A stretch of 64,000 nucleotides of DNA from Streptococcus mitis (GCA_963515455.1 CAUPXP010000007.1:19879-83878), one strand, 5' to 3'; counted from the stretch's first letter, positions 4,116 through 51,468 are shown. Made by a program: numbers and translations. The notes: generated by a model from the sequence alone, not told the origin.

Positions 4116-4720
4116 TGGGAAAAATCATCGGAATCACTGGGGGAATTGCCTCTGGTAAGTCAACCGTGACAAATTTTCTAAGAAAGCAAGGCTTTCAAGT
4201 AGTGGATGCCGACGCAGTCGTCCACCAACTACAGAAACCTGGTGGTCGTCTGTTTGAAGCTCTAGTCCAGCACTTTGGTCAAAAAATTATCTTAGAAAAT
4301 GGAGAACTCAATCGCCCTCTCCTAGCTAGTCTCATCTTTTCAAATCCTGAAGAACGAGAATGGTCTAGGATAACTCAAGGAGAGATTATCCGTGAGGAAC
4401 TAGCTACGTTGAGAGACCAGTTTGCTCAGACAGAAGAGATTTTCTTCATGGATATTCCCCTACTTTTTGAGCAGGACTACGTCTCTTGGTTTGATGAGAC
4501 TTGGTTGGTCTATGTGGACCGAGATGTCCAAGTAGAACGTTTAATGAAAAGGGACAACTTGTCCAAAGATGAAGCTGAGTCTCGTCTGGCAGCCCAGTGG
4601 CCTTTAGAAAAAAAGAAAGGTTTGGCCAGCCATGTTTTAAACAACAATGGGAATCAGGACCAGCTTCTTACTCAGGTGTTCTCCCTGCTTGAGGGAGGTA
4701 AGCAAGATGACAGAGATTAA
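4115..4720 (+). CDS. coaE: Dephospho-CoA kinase
   Basis: [18 protein letters not shown]-loop. ATG 4115 overlaps the mutM stop (TGATG) and is preceded by AAAGGAGGGG. Confidence 0.9.
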   Translation: MGKIIGITGGIASGKSTVTNFLRKQGFQVVDADAVVHQLQKPGGRLFEALVQHFGQKIILENGELNRPLLASLIFSNPEEREWSRITQGEIIREELATLRDQFAQTEEIFFMDIPLLFEQDYVSWFDETWLVYVDRDVQVERLMKRDNLSKDEAESRLAAQWPLEKKKGLASHVLNNNGNQDQLLTQVFSLLEGGKQDDRD

Positions 4721-5906
4721 CTGGAAGGATAATCTGCGCATTGCCTGGTTTGGTAATTTTCTGACAGGAGCCAGTATTTCCTTAGTTGTGCCTTTTATGC
4801 CCATCTTTGTGGAAAGTCTGGGTGTAGGGAGTGAGCAAGTCGCTTTTTATGCAGGCTTAGCTATTTCTGTCTCTGCTATTTCCGCGGCGCTTTTTTCTCC
4901 TATCTGGGGCATCCTTGCTGACAAATACGGTCGAAAACCCATGATGATTCGTGCTGGTCTGGCCATGACTATCACTATGGGGGGATTGGCCTTTGTCCCA
5001 AATATTTATTGGTTAATCTTTCTTCGTTTATTAAACGGTGTATTTGCAGGATTTGTTCCTAATGCAACTGCCTTGATAGCCAGTCAGGTTCCCAAGGAGA
5101 AATCAGGCTCTGCCTTAGGTACTTTGTCTACTGGCGTAGTTGCAGGTACTCTAACTGGTCCCTTTATTGGTGGCTTTATCGCAGAATTATTTGGCATTCG
5201 TACAGTTTTCTTACTGGTTGGTAGTTTTCTATTTTTAGCTGCTATTTTGACTATTTGCTTTATCAAGGAAGATTTTCAACCAGTAGCCAAGGAAAAGTCC
5301 ATTCCAACAAAGGAATTATTTACATCAGTTAAATATCCCTATCTTTTGGTCAATCTCTTTCTGACCAGTTTTGTCATCCAATTTTCAGCCCAATCAATCG
5401 GCCCTATCTTAGCTCTGTATGTGCGCGACTTAGGCCAGACAGAGAATCTTCTTTTTGTCTCTGGTTTGATTGTGTCCAGTATGGGCTTTTCCAGTATGAT
5501 GAGTGCAGGAGTCATGGGAAAGCTAGGTGACAAGGTGGGCAACCATCGCCTCTTGGTTGTAGCCCAGTTTTATTCAGTTATCATCTATCTTCTCTGTGCC
5601 AATGCTTCTAGCCCCCTTCAACTAGGACTCTATCGATTCCTCTTTGGCTTGGGAACCGGTGCCTTGATTCCTGGAGTTAATGCCCTTCTCAGTAAGATGA
5701 CACCTAAAGCCGGTATTTCGAGGGTCTTTGCCTTTAATCAGGTATTCTTTTATCTGGGAGGTGTCGTTGGTCCCATGGCAGGTTCTGCAGTAGCAGGAAA
5801 ATTTGGCTACCATGCAGTCTTTTATGCGACAAGCCTTTGTGTTGCCTTTAGTTGTCTCTTTAACCTTCTTCAATTTCGAACATTATTAAAAGTAAAGGAA
5901 ATCTAG
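4707..5906 (+). CDS. pmrA: MFS multidrug efflux transporter (PmrA type)
   Basis: 399 aa from ATG 4707 (RBS GAGGGAGG), about 12 hydrophobic helices, starts [21 protein letters not shown]. The track start at 4647 overlaps coaE without an RBS. Confidence 0.85.
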
Positions 5907-45721: not shown

Positions 45722-47014
45722 ATGAACGAAATCAAATGTCCTAACTGTGGGGAAGTCTTTACAGTAAATGAGAGCCAGTATGCTGAACTTCTGTCTCAAG
45801 TGAGAACAGCAGAGTTTGATAAGGAATTGCACGATAGGATGAAGCAGGAACTGGCCTTGGCTGAGCAAAAGGTAATGAATGAACAACAGACCAAACTAGC
45901 TCAAAAAGACCAAGAAATTGCGCGATTACAGAGTCAAATCCAAAACTTTGATACAGAAAAAGAATTGGCCAAGAAAGAGGTTGAACAGACAAGTAATCAG
46001 GCCTTATTGGCTAAGGATAAGGAAGTACAGGCCTTGGAAAACCAATTGGCTACCTTGCGTTTGGAGCATGAAAATCAACTGCAAAAGACACTCTCTGACC
46101 TAGAAAAAGAACGGGATCAGGTTAAAAACCAGCTTCTTTTGCAGGAAAAGGAAAACGAGCTTTCTCTTGCTTCTGTCAAGCAAAACTACGAAGCACAGCT
46201 CAAGGCAGCTAGTGAACAAGTCGAATTTTATAAGAATTTCAAAGCTCAACAATCTACAAAAGCTATCGGGGAAAGTCTGGAACACTATGCAGAAAGTGAG
46301 TTTAACAAGGTCCGCAGTTTTGCCTTTCCAAATGCTTACTTTGAAAAGGATAACAAGGTTTCTGCGCGTGGGTCTAAAGGGGACTTTATCTTCCGTGAGT
46401 GTGATGAAAATGGAGTGGAAATCATTTCCATCATGTTTGAGATGAAAAATGAAGCAGATGGAACAGAGAAGAAGCACAAGAATGCAGATTTTTACAAGGA
46501 ATTGGACAAGGACCGTCGGGAGAAGAACTGTGAATATGCGGTTTTGGTGACCATGCTTGAGGCCGATAACGATTACTTTAATACAGGGATTGTTGACGTC
46601 AGCCATGAGTACGAAAAGATGTATGTGGTTCGTCCTCAATTCTTTATCCAGTTGATTGGTCTCTTACGGAATTCGGCGCTTAATTCCTTAAAATTTAAGC
46701 AGGAGTTGGCCTTGGTTCGGGAGCAAAATATCGATATTACACATTTTGAGGAAGACTTGGATGCCTTTAAGCTAGCCTTTGCCAAGAACTATAATTCAGC
46801 TTCGACTAACTTTGGCAAAGCTATCGATGAAATTGACAAGGCCATAAAACGGATGGAAGAGGTCAAGAAATTCCTAACCACATCTGAAAACCAACTCCGT
46901 CTAGCTAATAATAAATTGGAAGATGTTTCCGTCAAAAAACTAACTCGAAAAAATCCAACTATGAAAGCGAAGTTTGAAGCGCTGAAGGGGGAGTTAGAAA
47001 GCAGTGGAAAATGA
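45722..47014 (+). CDS. DUF2130-like protein: N-terminal CxxC zinc-ribbon, long coiled coil, C-terminal PD-(D/E)xK-like nuclease fold
   Basis: 430 aa starting MNEIKCPNCGEVFTV. Gln/Glu/Lys-rich heptad region. Nuclease-like motif GDFIFRE...IISIMFEMKNE (about 46378-46452). Confidence 0.8.
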   Translation: MNEIKCPNCGEVFTVNESQYAELLSQVRTAEFDKELHDRMKQELALAEQKVMNEQQTKLAQKDQEIARLQSQIQNFDTEKELAKKEVEQTSNQALLAKDKEVQALENQLATLRLEHENQLQKTLSDLEKERDQVKNQLLLQEKENELSLASVKQNYEAQLKAASEQVEFYKNFKAQQSTKAIGESLEHYAESEFNKVRSFAFPNAYFEKDNKVSARGSKGDFIFRECDENGVEIISIMFEMKNEADGTEKKHKNADFYKELDKDRREKNCEYAVLVTMLEADNDYFNTGIVDVSHEYEKMYVVRPQFFIQLIGLLRNSALNSLKFKQELALVREQNIDITHFEEDLDAFKLAFAKNYNSASTNFGKAIDEIDKAIKRMEEVKKFLTTSENQLRLANNKLEDVSVKKLTRKNPTMKAKFEALKGELESSGK

Positions 47015-47015
47015 A
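46994..47015 (+). repeat. Left copy of the direct repeat flanking the cassette (TTAGAAAGCA + GTGG + AAAATGAA)
   Basis: Compared by eye with 50577-50594. The 10-nt block and the 8-nt block are identical; the left copy carries a 4-nt insertion. Confidence 0.85.
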
Positions 47016-48674
47016 TTATTAGTATTGAATACTGAGGAAGTAAATGAGTCTGAAAATTTAAACTATGATGAGTTAGAAGAACTATTGGAACAGCAATTTA
47101 CAATGGAGTTCTCTAATCTTGAGAAATTAGAACTAGAATGTAAAGAAATTAGTTCACCGGATAAATTAGGAGATGTTGTTTTAGATGAAATTTGGAGTCA
47201 ATTTGCGAACCAAATTGGTTTAGATATGACAAGCGACACGCTTCTTAAGCAGTATAACGATAAACATCCTAATGGTTATACAAAAGAAGAGGGTGCTAAA
47301 ATAATGAAAGATAAAAGGTATACTGATGCAAATAATGCTATGAAAGAAAGGCAAAAAAATGGAAATTTAAAGGATGAATATACTGGAAAAACAATAAAAA
47401 TTAACGAAAAAGCTAATTTGGATCACGTCATACCAAGAAAACAGATTTTTGAAAACCCATGGAGGAAAATAGCAGATATTGAAACTTCTGATTTAGCCAA
47501 TAAATCAGAAAATTTGGCAGGAACTAATGAATCTCTTAATAAAAGTAAAGGCGCAAAATCTAATAGCGAGTATATAAAGAAAAGAGAAGCAAGAGAAAAA
47601 AATCTTAAAGAACAAGTTGAAAGAGCTAATAAAAAAATTGATAAGATGAATATCTCAGATGCCGAAAAGCGAAATCTTAAGGCTGAAAATAATAAAAAAT
47701 TAAATGATAAATTGGCTGCTGATTCAGATAAGATGATTAAAGTTGAAAAAAGTGCAAAGAAAGCTATGTATAAACCAATAGCAAAGAAAGCTGCAGTTAG
47801 AATGGCGAACAAGGCAGGTAAAGACGCAGTTAAAGCTATGTTTGTTGCAGCGTTATTTGGGATGTTGAAAGAAATAATGAATGCTTTGGTTCGTTTTTTT
47901 AAATCTAAAAAACGTTCGTTTGATACATTCTTAGATGAAATGAAAAATGCACTTCATTCCTTCTTTGGTAAAATTAGAGATTTTATTAAAGTGGGTGTAG
48001 ATAGTTTTGTTGGAAGCATCGTAGGAGAAATTATTGGTGCTTTCGCTGAAAAACTAAGAAAGTTACCAAATTTGGTAAAACAATTATTTGGTTCAATTAG
48101 AGAAAGTATCTCTTATCTATCAAACCCTGAAAATCAATCTCATTCTACTGCAATTAAAATTGCCCATGTTTCAAAAATTATTACATCCGCATTATTAGGT
48201 GTAGGAGCAATGTTTTTAGGAGAATATTTTGAACAGTTCTTAAATAAGATACCAGGTATGACTTTTGAAATAAAACTTCTAGGAACAATTGCTAATATTT
48301 TAGGGATGTTCTTTGCAAGTTTACTAACTGGAATCTTGGGAGCGATAATCATTAACGGACTTGATGGTTTTATATCAAGGAAACTACAAGATGAGAACAA
48401 AAAACAACAAGTTGATAAGAAGAACGAATTGCTAAGAATTCAGGATGTTCAAATTTTTGTTGCCGAGCAAAATGTTGCTGTTAAGCGAAATGATATCTTC
48501 AGTAAGATGGCTAAGAACCATCAAAAACTAAGAGAACTACTTGGCAATGTTGATGAAGAGTTTTCTAATTCAAAGATTGATTTCAAACAGCGATTATTAG
48601 CTAATGAAATTTACTTTGATGAAAAGCAAAGTGAACTTGAAGAAATGCAAAATGCATTAAACGATTTATTATAG
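47004..48674 (+). CDS. HNH (beta-beta-alpha-Me) nuclease domain protein fused to a multi-helix membrane region and a C-terminal coiled coil (cassette gene 1)
   Basis: 556 aa. GTG start 11 nt after GGGGAG. HNH motif DEYTGKTI...NLDHVIPRK...SENLAGTNESLNKSKGAKSN (aa about 124-186, nt about 47373-47561). Hydrophobic segments ITSALLGVGAMFLGEYF and LLGTIANILGMFFASLLTGILGAIIINGL. Confidence 0.7.
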   Translation: MENELLVLNTEEVNESENLNYDELEELLEQQFTMEFSNLEKLELECKEISSPDKLGDVVLDEIWSQFANQIGLDMTSDTLLKQYNDKHPNGYTKEEGAKIMKDKRYTDANNAMKERQKNGNLKDEYTGKTIKINEKANLDHVIPRKQIFENPWRKIADIETSDLANKSENLAGTNESLNKSKGAKSNSEYIKKREAREKNLKEQVERANKKIDKMNISDAEKRNLKAENNKKLNDKLAADSDKMIKVEKSAKKAMYKPIAKKAAVRMANKAGKDAVKAMFVAALFGMLKEIMNALVRFFKSKKRSFDTFLDEMKNALHSFFGKIRDFIKVGVDSFVGSIVGEIIGAFAEKLRKLPNLVKQLFGSIRESISYLSNPENQSHSTAIKIAHVSKIITSALLGVGAMFLGEYFEQFLNKIPGMTFEIKLLGTIANILGMFFASLLTGILGAIIINGLDGFISRKLQDENKKQQVDKKNELLRIQDVQIFVAEQNVAVKRNDIFSKMAKNHQKLRELLGNVDEEFSNSKIDFKQRLLANEIYFDEKQSELEEMQNALNDLL

Positions 48675-48683
48675 GAGAATGTT

Positions 48684-49484
48684 ATGTCAGAAGAATTAGA
48701 GATTCAAGTTTTAGCAAATTCTGAAAGATTTAATGAAAAAAAACAAGAGTTAAAAGCCTTTAGTGAAGAGATCCCTGAACAGTCAGATTTACCAACAGTT
48801 CCAACAGATGATCCTATGTTAGGCTTTATTGGAATGGAATATGATGTTAAGGGTAAAGATTTGAACGCTCTTACTGATGCTGTTCAAAATAGAATGATTG
48901 AACAAAATATTCACATAAAAAAGATTATTCAAGAATTTAATACTATTTACGAAACTTTCCAAATATTGGATGATGAGTATATTCAAAGTATTTCAAAATC
49001 TTTGATTGCAGCCAAAGAGGCAAATAATAAAGCTATACAGGGATTGCACGAAATAGAAGAATATCAAATAGGTAATAACAAACTATTAGATGATGTTTTT
49101 AAACAGAATAAAGATTTAATTGATATATTGAAGAAACATCATAAAAAGCTAGAAGAGTTAGAACAACTTGAAGATAAGCAAAGTGAAATTCATAATGAAA
49201 TTGATAGTTTAAAAGCGAAGCTAAAAACATTAGTGAAAATAGAAAATAGTTTTAACGATTTGCGTTTCCAAGTTGAAGAAACACAAAATAATCTTAAAAA
49301 CGATGTAGATAAGATGAATGTTCGATTAATAGAGGAAGGTAAAAATCTTACTTTAATTGTCGAGAAATTTCAAACTGAACTAGAGGAAAAACAAAAAGAG
49401 ATTAGTTTCCTTAGAAAAGGATTCTATACTCTTGGAGTCGCTGTTGTTATAATAGTATTATTTCTATTATTTAAAGGAATGTAG
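48684..49484 (+). CDS. Tail-anchored coiled-coil protein (cassette gene 2), unknown function
   Basis: 266 aa. RBS AGGAG 6 nt upstream. Heptad-rich Glu/Lys/Asn/Gln sequence. Single C-terminal TM FYTLGVAVVIIVLFLLF. Confidence 0.7.
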   Translation: MSEELEIQVLANSERFNEKKQELKAFSEEIPEQSDLPTVPTDDPMLGFIGMEYDVKGKDLNALTDAVQNRMIEQNIHIKKIIQEFNTIYETFQILDDEYIQSISKSLIAAKEANNKAIQGLHEIEEYQIGNNKLLDDVFKQNKDLIDILKKHHKKLEELEQLEDKQSEIHNEIDSLKAKLKTLVKIENSFNDLRFQVEETQNNLKNDVDKMNVRLIEEGKNLTLIVEKFQTELEEKQKEISFLRKGFYTLGVAVVIIVLFLLFKGM

Positions 49485-50570
49485 ATGATTAGTGAAACTT
49501 ATTTAAAATTGTTAAAATCGGAAGTGAAAAAACTGGATGATTTAACAAATAATACTTATGAATTGGAAATAATTCTTCAAGATATAGTTGATAATCTTAA
49601 AAATGCTGAGTTAGAATTTATAAAACGATTAGGAAACTTGACAAGTAAAGAGACATTCTCAAAAATCAAAGATAAGCAAACTAGCATATTGGAATTATTG
49701 TATAAATATCTTGGCTCTAGAGTTATTGATACAAATTATTTAATTTTGAAAGAAACAAATAATAAATCATTTGAAGAACTAGCAAATGATTTAAAGTCCT
49801 TAATAGGTTTAGAAAATGTTAAGAAAGAAATTAAAGATTTAGTAGCGTTTAATAAAGTTCAACAAAGTAGAGAAAAAATCGGTCTTAAAAAAACAAACAG
49901 AACTATGCATATGGCGTTTTTAGGTAATCCAGGTACAGGTAAAACAACAGTTGCTAGAATTGTTGGTAATATGTATCGTTCTCTAGGAATACTAAGTAAA
50001 GGTCACTTTATAGAGGCAAGTAGAACAGACTTAATAGCAGAATATCAAGGACAGACGGCTTCGAAAGTGAAGAGATTGATACAAAAAGCCAAAGGTGGTG
50101 TATTGTTTATTGATGAAGCATATAGTATTACTGAAAACGATAAAAGTGATAGTTATGGTCGGGAGTGTTTAACTGAGTTAACAAAAGCATTAGAAGACTA
50201 TCGTGATGATTTGGTGGTTATTGTTGCTGGATATGATGAATTGATGAAAAAATTTTTTGAATCTAATCCTGGGTTAAAATCAAGATTTAATTATTTTATT
50301 ACGTTTGAAGATTATACGGTGAACCAAATGTTTGATATTTTTCTTTCATATTGCAAAAATGAAGAGTACATTTTGCATGATTCTGCAAAAGAAAAATTAA
50401 AAAAATATTTAGAATTACATAGTAGCAATCCTGAAAATAAAAATGCAAATGGGCGATTTGTAAGAAATGTATTTGACAGTATAATTATGAACCAAGCAAT
50501 AAGATTAGCCACACTATCTTTTGTTACAAAAGATAATTACATTACGATTCTTGAAGAAGATATTTCATGA
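49485..50570 (+). CDS. AAA+ ATPase of the CbbX/SpoVK/EccA clade (cassette gene 3)
   Basis: 361 aa. Walker A GNPGTGKTT (49923-49949) and Walker B GGVLFIDEAYS (D210/E211, about 50094-50126). Family-typical LIGLENVKKEI...VAGY...NPGLKSRF. The ATG abuts the upstream TAG. Confidence 0.85.
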   Translation: MISETYLKLLKSEVKKLDDLTNNTYELEIILQDIVDNLKNAELEFIKRLGNLTSKETFSKIKDKQTSILELLYKYLGSRVIDTNYLILKETNNKSFEELANDLKSLIGLENVKKEIKDLVAFNKVQQSREKIGLKKTNRTMHMAFLGNPGTGKTTVARIVGNMYRSLGILSKGHFIEASRTDLIAEYQGQTASKVKRLIQKAKGGVLFIDEAYSITENDKSDSYGRECLTELTKALEDYRDDLVVIVAGYDELMKKFFESNPGLKSRFNYFITFEDYTVNQMFDIFLSYCKNEEYILHDSAKEKLKKYLELHSSNPENKNANGRFVRNVFDSIIMNQAIRLATLSFVTKDNYITILEEDIS

Positions 50571-50576
50571 ATGAAA

Positions 50577-50594
50577 TTAGAAAGCAAAAATGAA
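50577..50594 (+). repeat. Right copy of the direct repeat flanking the cassette (TTAGAAAGCAAAAATGAA); contains the truB start codon
   Basis: Identical 10-nt and 8-nt blocks to 46994-47003 and 47008-47015. Confidence 0.85.
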
Positions 50595-51468
50595 CGGTAT
50601 TATCAACTTAAAAAAAGAAGCAGGGATGACCTCGCATGATGCGGTTTTTAAACTGCGTAAGATTTTGGGAACCAAGAAAATTGGTCATGGTGGGACCTTG
50701 GATCCGGATGTAGTGGGCGTTTTGCCCATTGCGGTTGGCAAGGCGACACGCATGGTCGAGTTTATGCAGGACGAGGGTAAGGTCTATGAGGGGGAAATAA
50801 CTCTGGGCTATTCCACGACGACTGAGGATGCCAGTGGGGAAGTGGTCGCAGAGACACCTGTTTTGTTGCCCCTGGATGAAAAAATTGTCGATGGAGCGAT
50901 TGCTAGCTTGACTGGGCCTATTACTCAGATTCCACCTATGTATTCGGCTGTCAAGGTTAATGGTCGTAAGCTCTATGAGTATGCGCGTGCTGGTCAGGAA
51001 GTGGATCGTCCAGAGCGTCAGGTTACGATTTATCAATTTGAGCGGACAAGTCCGATTTCTTATGAGGGTCATCTTGCACGATTTACTTTTCGTGTGAAAT
51101 GTAGCAAGGGAACCTATATTCGTACCTTATCGGTTGACTTGGGAGAGAAGCTTGGTTATGCGGCTCATATGTCACATCTGACTCGAACTAGTGCAGCTGG
51201 TTTACAGCTAGAAGACGCTCTTACCTTGGAAGAAATTGCTGAAAAAATGGAGGCTGGTCAATTGAACTTTCTCCATCCTCTAGAGATTGGGACAGGCGAC
51301 CTTGTCAAAGTTTTCCTAAGTCCAGAAGAGGCTACAGAAGTACGCTTTGGTCGTTTTATCGAGCTCGACCAAACAGAACAAGAATTGGCTGCTTTTGAAG
51401 GAGATAAATTACTAGCCATTCTTGAAAAACGGGGCAATCTCTATAAGCCGAGGAAGGTTTTTATCTAA
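50590..51468 (+). CDS. truB: tRNA pseudouridine-55 synthase
   Basis: 292 aa starting [17 protein letters not shown], with catalytic Asp context GHGGTLDP. Confidence 0.95.

Follow-up and report, generated by a model that had tools for sequence, protein, structure and literature searches.

A mobile three-gene cassette of Streptococcus mitis, predicted to encode a membrane-associated HNH nuclease, a tail-anchored coiled-coil protein, and a CbbX-clade AAA+ ATPase, is a candidate conflict system

What is the role of three adjoining, AT-rich genes that Streptococcus mitis carries between a DUF2130 gene and truB? The genes lie in a stretch of 64,000 nucleotides (GCA_963515455.1, CAUPXP010000007.1:19879-83878), which we call the window and in which positions are counted from the first letter. 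Three open reading frames (ORFs) were called on the plus strand at 47004-50570, with DUF2130 upstream and truB downstream. An earlier note, made from the sequence alone, had read them as a membrane-anchored HNH nuclease (gene 1), a tail-anchored coiled-coil protein (gene 2), and an AAA+ ATPase (gene 3), and had proposed an undescribed defense or conflict system. Our analysis leads us to favor, with moderate confidence, a mobile, membrane-associated three-gene conflict system that most likely acts against phages or other foreign DNA by the mechanism proposed below. The linkage of the genes, their mobility, and their genomic context support the cassette as a candidate system of this kind.

The three genes were found together well beyond S. 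mitis. A locus scan limited to one genome per species, seeded with a closer 10-sequence alignment because a 76-sequence alignment (A1) was too diverse, found 42 loci. Thirty-four of these have the order DUF2130-gene 1-gene 2-gene 3-truB, all with streptococcal flanks, and their carriers include S. mitis, S. oralis, S. infantis, S. australis, S. sanguinis, S. vulneris, and S. nidrosiense. The other 8 come from non-streptococcal taxa (Fictibacillus, Enterococcus, Lachnospiraceae, Jeotgalibaca, a Streptococcaceae metagenome-assembled genome, Brachyspira, Suipraeoptans, and Ruminiclostridium) and have gene 1 followed by gene 3 on the same strand. Two Lactococcus plasmids, which encode a gene 1 homologue (22% identity), a 124-amino-acid gene product, a gene 2 homologue, and a gene 3 homologue (57%), bring the non-streptococcal loci with all three genes to 10. 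The linkage holds even where gene 1 identity drops to 22 to 27%, and the ORF between genes 1 and 3 in the 8 non-streptococcal loci of the scan encodes a tail-anchored coiled-coil protein of 244 to 532 amino acids. The operon is also present on one 8-kb "viral" contig, in which we saw no recognizable phage genes. The earlier note had treated the three genes as one unit, and in 34 streptococcal and 10 distant loci they do co-occur as such. We conclude that genes 1, 2, and 3 are a conserved, horizontally exchanged unit.

Additional components of this unit were considered. Some non-streptococcal loci contain, as an optional fourth gene, an ORF for a small N-terminally anchored protein of 114 to 136 amino acids (L133:5817-6227, L042:8637-8981, L046:8644-9024, L047:7919-8275, and L001:8599-8973), which the streptococcal version of the cassette lacks. 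In L133 this protein resembles the C-terminal transmembrane segment and coiled coil of gene 1 (28% identity over 136 amino acids), which suggests that the optional fourth protein is a paralogous partner helix of gene 1. DUF2130 was rejected as a fourth component. It is missing from all of the non-streptococcal cassette loci, and so is a neighbor rather than a component, and it is present beside insertion sites that are empty of the cassette.

Within the window, gene 1 (47004..48674, 556 amino acids, GTG start), gene 2 (48684..49484, 266 amino acids), and gene 3 (49485..50570, 361 amino acids) are all on the plus strand. A gap of 9 nucleotides separates genes 1 and 2, with a GGAG that overlaps the gene 1 stop codon, and the TAG stop codon of gene 2 directly abuts the ATG of gene 3 (49482-49487), which fits with making both proteins as a complex. 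The GC content is 0.27 to 0.30 over 47 to 50 kb versus ~0.42 in the flanks. The ORFs, the gap, the TAG/ATG junction, and the low GC content are as the earlier note had described them. One correction is needed: the GTG start of gene 1 overlaps the 3' end of the DUF2130 ORF by 11 nucleotides. The position of this start is supported by the S. sanguinis allele, which has ATG at the same place.

Gene 1 encodes, in this order, an acidic helical N-terminal region (net charge of -15 over the first 60 amino acids), a predicted HNH domain (residues ~120 to 190, 47361..47573), a hydrophobic helical domain, presumed to be the membrane domain (residues ~275 to 460, 47826..48383), and a C-terminal coiled-coil helix (residues ~461 to 556, 48384..48671). 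The HNH domain was placed by motif, structural model, and Foldseek search, the hydrophobic domain by Kyte-Doolittle hydropathy and an AlphaFold2 model, and the coiled-coil helix by the AlphaFold2 model. The HNH motif consists of D140 and H141 (codons at 47421-47426, plus strand), N166, N170, and N179-x-S181-K182. In a comparison of 84 full-length gene 1 representatives sharing 20 to 43% identity, D140 is conserved in 94%, H141 in 95%, N166 in 94%, N170 in 98%, N179 in 96%, S181 in 86%, and K182 in 93%, and in a trimmed 39-sequence alignment of the HNH domain (A3) the D, the H, and the three N residues are invariant. The family as a whole, collected from 1.84 billion representatives at an E value of ≤0.001, amounts to 598 clusters at 50% identity, mostly of ~550 amino acids. 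The near invariance of the catalytic residues argues for genuine nuclease chemistry in this family.

Structural models point the same way. The full-length AlphaFold2 model of gene 1 has a mean predicted local distance difference test score (pLDDT) of 83, and a fragment model of residues 96 to 215 has a pLDDT of 94. The models have a β-strand at 137 to 141, a second at 171 to 175, and an α-helix at 176 to 182, which is a ββα-Me fold. Foldseek searches with the fragment return Cas9 HNH domains on top (probability, 0.96 to 0.99), followed by a type II restriction enzyme, the Gme HNH, Vvn/endonuclease I, Cap5, and BrxU; nearly all of the 50 listed matches are His-Me nucleases, with E values no better than 0.03 to 3. 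The Pfam HNH_4 match covers residues 125 to 151 only and is below threshold (E = 0.0085; 16.5 bits versus a cutoff of 22), because an insert of ~20 residues, modeled as short helices, splits the first and second β-strands in gene 1. The domain has the ββα-Me fold and the D-H…N…N pattern of the Cas9-type HNH (HNH_4) domains and likewise lacks zinc-binding cysteines, but it is fused to a membrane domain and not to an RNA-guided scaffold. Taken together, motif and models indicate that gene 1 contains a Cas9-type HNH (His-Me finger) nuclease domain.

The hydrophobic domain of gene 1 includes one strong transmembrane-like helix (window centers 431 to 449 by Kyte-Doolittle) and three weaker amphipathic ones. 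The strong helix, at ~425 to 459, carries a glycine-zipper-like GILGAIIINGLDG at residues 443 to 455, and G443 and P417 are conserved in 94% and 88%, respectively, of the 84 relatives. AlphaFold2 places helices at 275 to 300, 306 to 335, 349 to 373, 382 to 413, and 429 to 555, the last of which runs unbroken from the transmembrane segment into the C-terminal coiled coil. A fold search with full-length gene 1 against the PDB returned nothing significant (best E = 0.6), and the profile of the gene 1 family matched only designed helical repeats and noise among PDB sequences, with the BrxU HNH region at an E value of 0.65. The idea that gene 1 is a pore former was considered and is unsupported, since SmhB and AhlB, two tripartite α-pore-forming toxins, reached E values no better than 1.4 to 6. 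In public databases, members of the gene 1 family are named "cation diffusion facilitator family transporter," "cobalamin adenosyltransferase," "ATPase," and "membrane protein"; our domain analysis bears out none of them (P0059 and P0109; plasmid hits H9, H10, H24, and H25).

Gene 2 is predicted to encode a tail-anchored coiled-coil protein. Hydropathy analysis detects a single C-terminal transmembrane segment (~49401-49472; window centers 249 to 257) that is followed by 3 residues, and a C-terminal transmembrane segment is also present in the gene 2 ORF of 9 of the 9 non-streptococcal loci that were examined. The N-terminal ~150 amino acids are kept in Lactococcus (39% identity over residues 16 to 164). 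Profile searches of Pfam, PADLOC, and NCBIfam gave only generic coiled-coil matches.

The product of gene 3 is a soluble AAA+ ATPase of the CbbX/SpoVK/EccA clade with intact motor motifs. It matches Pfam AAA (8.2e-19) and AAA_lid_6 (2.2e-15), and in NCBIfam it matches SpoVK (1e-85), CbbX (4e-70), and EccA (2e-65), in each case below the equivalog cutoff (286.6 bits versus 422.95 for SpoVK, 236.4 versus 459.25 for CbbX, and 221.4 versus 466.65 for EccA). Its PDB sequence matches include CbbX (2e-59, residues 98 to 360) and EccA1 (5e-43). Walker A K153, pore-loop Y187, Walker B D210/E211, R267, and the sensor-2 motif NGRxxRN (residues 322 to 328) are invariant in 12 homologues, and the motor motifs align to those of CbbX. 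With the clade it shares the AAA+ core, AAA_lid_6, the pore-loop tyrosine, the arginine finger, and sensor 2; it differs in having no Rubisco, sporulation, or type VII secretion system (T7SS) genes nearby, and the tetratricopeptide repeat (TPR) N-domain of EccA is absent.

The AAA+ module and lid (residues 98 to 360, 49776..50564) are preceded by a helical N-domain (residues 1 to 97, 49485..49775) that is alignable across the 12 system homologues. Plasmid records with a gene 3 match number 246, and among the 30 matches listed an alignment that starts at residue 1 is confined to the Lactococcus cassette copies; the remaining listed matches begin at residue 41 or later, mostly at ~90. The gene 3-like ATPases of phages have no system-type N-domain, and the contexts of CbbX-like ATPases on Limosilactobacillus and Bacteroides plasmids gave no information. 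The far N-terminal part of gene 3 appears, from these alignments, to be specific to the cassette system. The earlier note's picture of the three proteins has thus held up in its particulars: the acidic N terminus, the D140, H141, N170, and N179 motif of an HNH protein, the hydrophobic helices with the glycine-zipper-like segment, and the final coiled coil of gene 1; the almost complete coiled coil and single C-terminal anchor of gene 2; and the clade assignment of gene 3, in which Walker A K153, Walker B D210/E211, LIGLE, VAGY, and NPGLKSRF are where that note had placed them.

Are these proteins related to known defense systems? Defense models were taken from PADLOC-DB v2 (2023), in which gene 1 matches PDC-M40B (E = 1.1e-10, 38.9 bits; residues 96 to 514 against model positions 88 to 499 of 547). 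Gene 1 and PDC-M40B have their whole architecture in common, with the HNH motif ahead of the hydrophobic helices and a length of ~520 to 570 amino acids, and the PDC-M40B family and the cassette are alike found on plasmids and in mobile regions, often behind WYL regulators. Gene 1 is, however, a distant member: the members from proteobacteria, clostridia, and phages match at E values between 1e-101 and 1e-31. The partners also differ, since PDC-M40 operons have PDC-M40C, PDC-M09A-like, and YkgJ partners and the cassette has a tail-anchored coiled coil and a CbbX-type AAA+ protein. PADLOC finds no PDC-M40A or PDC-M40C match for the gene 2, gene 3, or DUF2130 protein.

The partners of gene 1 relatives vary from one replicon to another. 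PADLOC identifies PDC-M40C beside the relative on an E. coli plasmid and JukA in a WYL-JukA-gene 1-like operon on a Raoultella plasmid. On Duffyella and Clostridium difficile plasmids the partners are a PDC-M09A-like protein (annotated by PGAP as "chemotaxis protein" in Duffyella) and YkgJ-family proteins; on a Vibrio plasmid they are, from annotation without a PADLOC scan, a PGAP "chemotaxis protein" and a YkgJ-family protein. A PDC-M09A-like protein is the partner in Aeromonas jumbo phages, and a C. butyricum plasmid has a larger multigene set. A WYL regulator heads four of the sampled operons. Given partners as varied as JukA, PDC-M40C, and PDC-M09A-like proteins, the gene 1 family behaves as a shared effector module. 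Aeromonas phage D3 (L128, 150948-153544) encodes a full-length gene 1-family protein of 524 amino acids (PDC-M40B E = 9e-31) right after the PDC-M09A-like protein, and jumbo phages D6, D9, and LAh10 likewise encode both proteins, a candidate defense gene pair carried by phages.

The Juk system offers a close parallel to this modular use. In Juk, the sensor JukA recruits diverse effectors, including the pore-forming JukB, to the early-infection vesicle of the phage, and JukA pairs with diverse effectors, HNH proteins included (10.1101/2022.09.17.508391, PMC13282480). On the Raoultella plasmid, a gene 1 relative occupies the effector slot directly after JukA. The effectors of Juk are active at a membrane structure where infection takes place, and the logic that we propose for the cassette is similar, namely, that a variable partner module steers a membrane-active effector. 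In the cassette the partner module would be the AAA+ ATPase with the tail-anchored protein, and the hosts are Gram positive. We know of no link between these hosts and jumbo phages, and PADLOC finds no JukA or JukB match for any protein of the window.

Zorya, Kiwa, Tmn, IetAS, and Lamassu have a general design in common with the cassette (a membrane component, coiled coils, and a nuclease or NTPase), but the cassette has no MotAB-like ZorAB, KwaAB, YobI-type Tmn, IetS protease, or LmuA. No protein of the window gives a PADLOC match to LmuA, ZorA, or ZorB at an E value of ≤0.1. Gene 2 has only low-scoring coiled-coil matches to LmuB, JetC, and DruC, and its Lactococcus homologue only low-scoring ones to LmuB, ZorA, and JetC. 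Gene 3 matches IetA only over the generic P-loop (residues 105 to 216, E = 6e-9) and NCBIfam IteA at 25 bits versus a cutoff of 510, and no protease gene is present. PADLOC detects no lactococcal abortive infection (Abi) protein among the four Lactococcus operon proteins. Matches of gene 2 or gene 3 to IetA, DolB, TRIP13, LmuB, and JetC were set aside as generic AAA+ or coiled-coil matches. The searchable literature contains no description of PDC-M40 or of a CbbX/SpoVK-type ATPase in phage defense. We conclude that neither PADLOC-DB v2 nor the searchable literature has a named system that the combination of AAA+ ATPase and tail-anchored protein matches. The claim of an undescribed system therefore survives in part: the three-gene combination corresponds to none of the named systems that the earlier note had listed, but gene 1 itself is not undescribed, since its family is already catalogued as the defense candidate PDC-M40B.

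The surroundings of the cassette are also of a defense type. WYL regulators lie directly upstream of it in 3 of the 8 non-streptococcal chromosomal loci. Approximately 10 of 67 cassette-neighbor proteins match PADLOC models at an E value of ≤1e-5 (3 WYL, 2 Mrr-type type IV, 1 type I R subunit, 2 PDC-S02, 1 PDC-S15, and 1 mad2), and the copy on Lactococcus plasmid pUC073A is between IS982 elements and adjoins a type I R subunit. The defense-like setting in which the earlier note had suggested looking for homologues was thus found, with WYL, Mrr, and type I restriction proteins nearby and with a ThsA/SIR2-N-terminus-like protein and HsdR in the same streptococcal insertion site.

This insertion site, the DUF2130-truB interval, was surveyed by a metagenome scan seeded with DUF2130, since searches for identical copies of the two flanking proteins, TruB and DUF2130, had returned the same strain only. 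The interval is empty (21 nucleotides) in three loci (L070, L076, and L077) and elsewhere holds inserts of ~0.4 to 5.3 kb in at least a dozen states (loci L048 to L079 and L101). It is a cassette-swap hotspot in streptococci. One insert (L050) encodes a 1,060-amino-acid protein with a GC content of 0.27, the first ~50 residues of which match ThsA/SIR2 models; another (L072) encodes a type I HsdR, and a third (L051), 4.5 kb long and low in GC, encodes small membrane proteins without family matches. More ordinary cargo consists of an α/β-hydrolase, a GNAT protein, an oxidoreductase-like gene (recognized by eye), and a DUF438/hemerythrin/PAS protein. In S. australis (L029:10561-12124), an oxidoreductase-like gene on the opposite strand lies between the cassette and truB, and therefore the hotspot can hold the cassette and a second insert.

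Alignment of the window junctions with empty sites L070 and L076 delimits the insert by a 10-nucleotide direct repeat, TTAGAAAGCA, with a left copy at 46994..47003 and a right copy at 50577..50586 (both plus strand), the latter directly 5' of the truB start codon. In empty sites this sequence is a single stretch comprising the DUF2130 stop codon and the truB ribosome-binding site. A repeat finder with a minimum of 14 nucleotides detected no flanking repeats, and the 10-nucleotide repeat is visible only in the junction alignments. The SIR2-like insert is flanked by a direct duplication of ~70 nucleotides of the DUF2130 3' end (L050:7440-7570 versus L050:4140-4240), which hints at a target-duplicating recombination at that locus, unlike the 10-nucleotide repeat of the window. 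A promoter and terminator scan found nothing inside the cassette above shuffled expectation, and the sole convincing terminator is upstream of DUF2130; the cassette probably rides in the DUF2130-truB transcript.

Compared pairwise with the window, the cassette genes have median ratios of nonsynonymous to synonymous substitution rates (dN/dS) of 0.14 (gene 1), 0.19 (gene 2), and 0.09 (gene 3), and the flanks have ratios of 0.02 (DUF2130) and 0.06 (truB). The cassette genes are therefore selectively maintained, less tightly than the flanks. The synonymous divergence (dS) of the three genes is uncorrelated inside single loci, e.g., 0.42, 0.07, and 0.97 for genes 1, 2, and 3 in L019 and 0.39, 0.03, and 0.12 in L013, and such sharply differing values within one locus indicate recombination mosaics. 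The cassette genes of S. sanguinis are 80 to 94% identical to those of the window (dS, 0.29 to 0.72), while the flanks are only 75 to 76% identical, with dS at or beyond saturation (2.29 for truB and not computable for DUF2130). Because the cassette is closer than its flanks, we conclude that it crossed between species after these had diverged.

How might such a cassette work? Gene 1 would be the effector, a cytoplasm-facing Cas9-type HNH DNase placed in or at the membrane by its hydrophobic helical domain. In the simplest placement, the N-terminal half of gene 1 with the HNH domain, the gene 1 coiled coil, the gene 2 coiled coil, and gene 3 would all be cytoplasmic. Gene 2 would scaffold or restrain gene 1 at the membrane, and the two may form a membrane-anchored coiled-coil assembly that holds the nuclease latent. 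Gene 3 would be a hexameric remodeler, docking by means of the N-domain that is particular to this system and working on the assembly by ATP-driven threading or tugging through pore-loop Y187. CbbX-clade ATPases are rings that tug on the terminal segment of a partner, as is established for CbbX on Rubisco, and by analogy gene 3 probably works like CbbX. An infection-linked cue would cause gene 3 to switch the gene 1-gene 2 assembly from latent to active, or gene 3 would reset the assembly afterwards. The outcome would be DNA cut at the membrane, probably near the DNA entry site. On the trigger, the sensing protein, the direction of ATPase control, and the topology, this scheme states what we infer, and killing could result from DNA cleavage, membrane damage, or both.

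A more specific form of this mechanism, in which a CbbX-type ring threads or extracts the tail-anchored restraint and thereby licenses a membrane HNH nuclease at the point of DNA entry, would amount to an entry-site immunity of Gram-positive bacteria. We offer it only tentatively and consider it on balance unlikely to be right in full. If it were true, it would be a new role for the Rubisco-activase/SpoVK/EccA clade, in a system using an effector family that is elsewhere coupled to the jumbo-phage sensor JukA.

Several observations weigh against a defense function of the cassette. The match of gene 1 to PDC-M40B is weak (1e-10 versus 1.2e-101 for the E. coli plasmid member), its membrane domain found no significant structural match in the PDB fold search, and genes 2 and 3 match no system-specific defense model in PADLOC. 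Experimental evidence for the AAA+-type cassette or for PDC-M40 was not found in the searchable literature. Ordinary accessory genes share the hotspot, and therefore location alone is no proof of defense. The streptococcal copies seem to sit inside a housekeeping operon, with no regulator, promoter, or terminator of their own that rises above chance. Moreover, tblastn detects copies that look decayed, with partial gene 1 in L036 to L038 and partial gene 3 in L008, L011, and L038; with several copies apparently decayed, any selective benefit would be conditional, and some streptococcal lineages seem to tolerate the loss of function.

One alternative is that the cassette serves itself or its carrier, either as an addiction-type set of toxin and regulator, in which the AAA+ protein restrains a toxic nuclease, or as a barrier to DNA entry by natural transformation or conjugation. 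Its presence on plasmids between insertion sequence (IS) elements, its horizontal exchange and mosaicism, and the lack of a dedicated regulator in streptococcal copies are all consistent with this. A membrane-anchored nuclease would sit where DNA enters, and mitis-group streptococci are naturally competent. However, the streptococcal cassette occupies one chromosomal site, its dS is comparable to that of the flanks, and it is under purifying selection in many species, which exceeds what addiction needs; in addition, its relatives are associated with WYL regulators and JukA. The explanation overlaps heavily with defense and is hard to separate from it by sequence, and we regard it as unlikely.

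A second alternative, which we consider less probable still, is that the cassette is a membrane-stress or membrane-remodeling module like PspA/ESCRT-III-Vps4 or the dynamin-like Leo, with the HNH domain mainly a DNA or nucleoid tether. It is well established that AAA+ proteins can take helical membrane polymers apart, and genes 1 and 2 consist mostly of long helices with amphipathic or hydrophobic segments; one gene 2 homologue has a subthreshold Apolipoprotein-type match, and the PDC-M09A-like partners of the gene 1 family weakly resemble LeoBC. The nearly invariant catalytic HNH residues argue instead for true nuclease chemistry, gene 3 is in the CbbX clade and not in the Vps4 or PspF clades, and no protein gave a PspA, Vipp1, or ESCRT profile match in Pfam. 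The patchy distribution of a low-GC, exchanged cassette is also unlike that of a general stress function.

That an EccA-like chaperone ATPase hands the gene 1 nuclease to an export machinery for interbacterial competition is very improbable: HNH domains are common toxin warheads and gene 3 has the EccA ATPases of the T7SS among its relatives (NCBIfam, 2e-65; PDB EccA1, 5e-43), but approximately 45 examined loci contain no T7SS or other secretion genes, gene 3 scores 221 bits against the EccA cutoff of 467 and lacks the EccA TPR N-domain, gene 1 contains hydrophobic helices in its interior and has neither a signal peptide nor an LXG/WXG-type Pfam match, and no immunity-like small gene is conserved beside gene 1 in Streptococcus.

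The conflict system directed against phages or foreign DNA thus remains the reading that we prefer. If validated, it would be a further defense system, one that is common among oral streptococci of humans and lactococci of dairy origin, and the CbbX/SpoVK/EccA AAA+ clade would acquire an immune function. The gene 1 family would then be a shared effector with at least four partner modules (JukA, PDC-M40C, PDC-M09A-like, and AAA+/tail anchor), and this modularity would be a useful handle on the control of membrane-proximal nucleases. The DUF2130-truB hotspot is a convenient natural cassette-swap site for comparing mitis-group streptococci.

Both genes that bound the cassette lie outside it. The core gene DUF2130 (45722..47014, plus strand; Pfam DUF2130, 4.5e-81) forms the left boundary, and truB (50590..51468, plus strand; Pfam TruB_N and TruB_C_2) forms the right. 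In the DUF2130 protein, a zinc ribbon (CPNC) at the N terminus is followed by a long coiled coil and then by a C-terminal domain, which a 2012 survey assigns to the PD-(D/E)XK nuclease superfamily (PMC3424549). Neither PADLOC nor the PDB gave a match for this protein. In the window the DUF2130 ORF is 6 codons longer because the insertion junction has replaced its stop codon.

Two individual loci deserve mention. The cassette is also on a contig of 4.5 kb that was assigned to "uncultured Carnobacterium sp." (L017, CAJPNA010000140.1), where it has streptococcal flanks that are 96% (DUF2130) and 97% (truB) identical to those of the window; this assignment is probably a binning error, not a sign of transfer to Carnobacterium. 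In Jeotgalibaca caeni (L042), the cassette is ~1.3 kb from an ORF on the minus strand (4456-5628) that, by eye, has an integrase-like N terminus and that adjoins ORFs resembling ribosomal protein genes, which suggests that the cassette of J. caeni is in a small integrative island.

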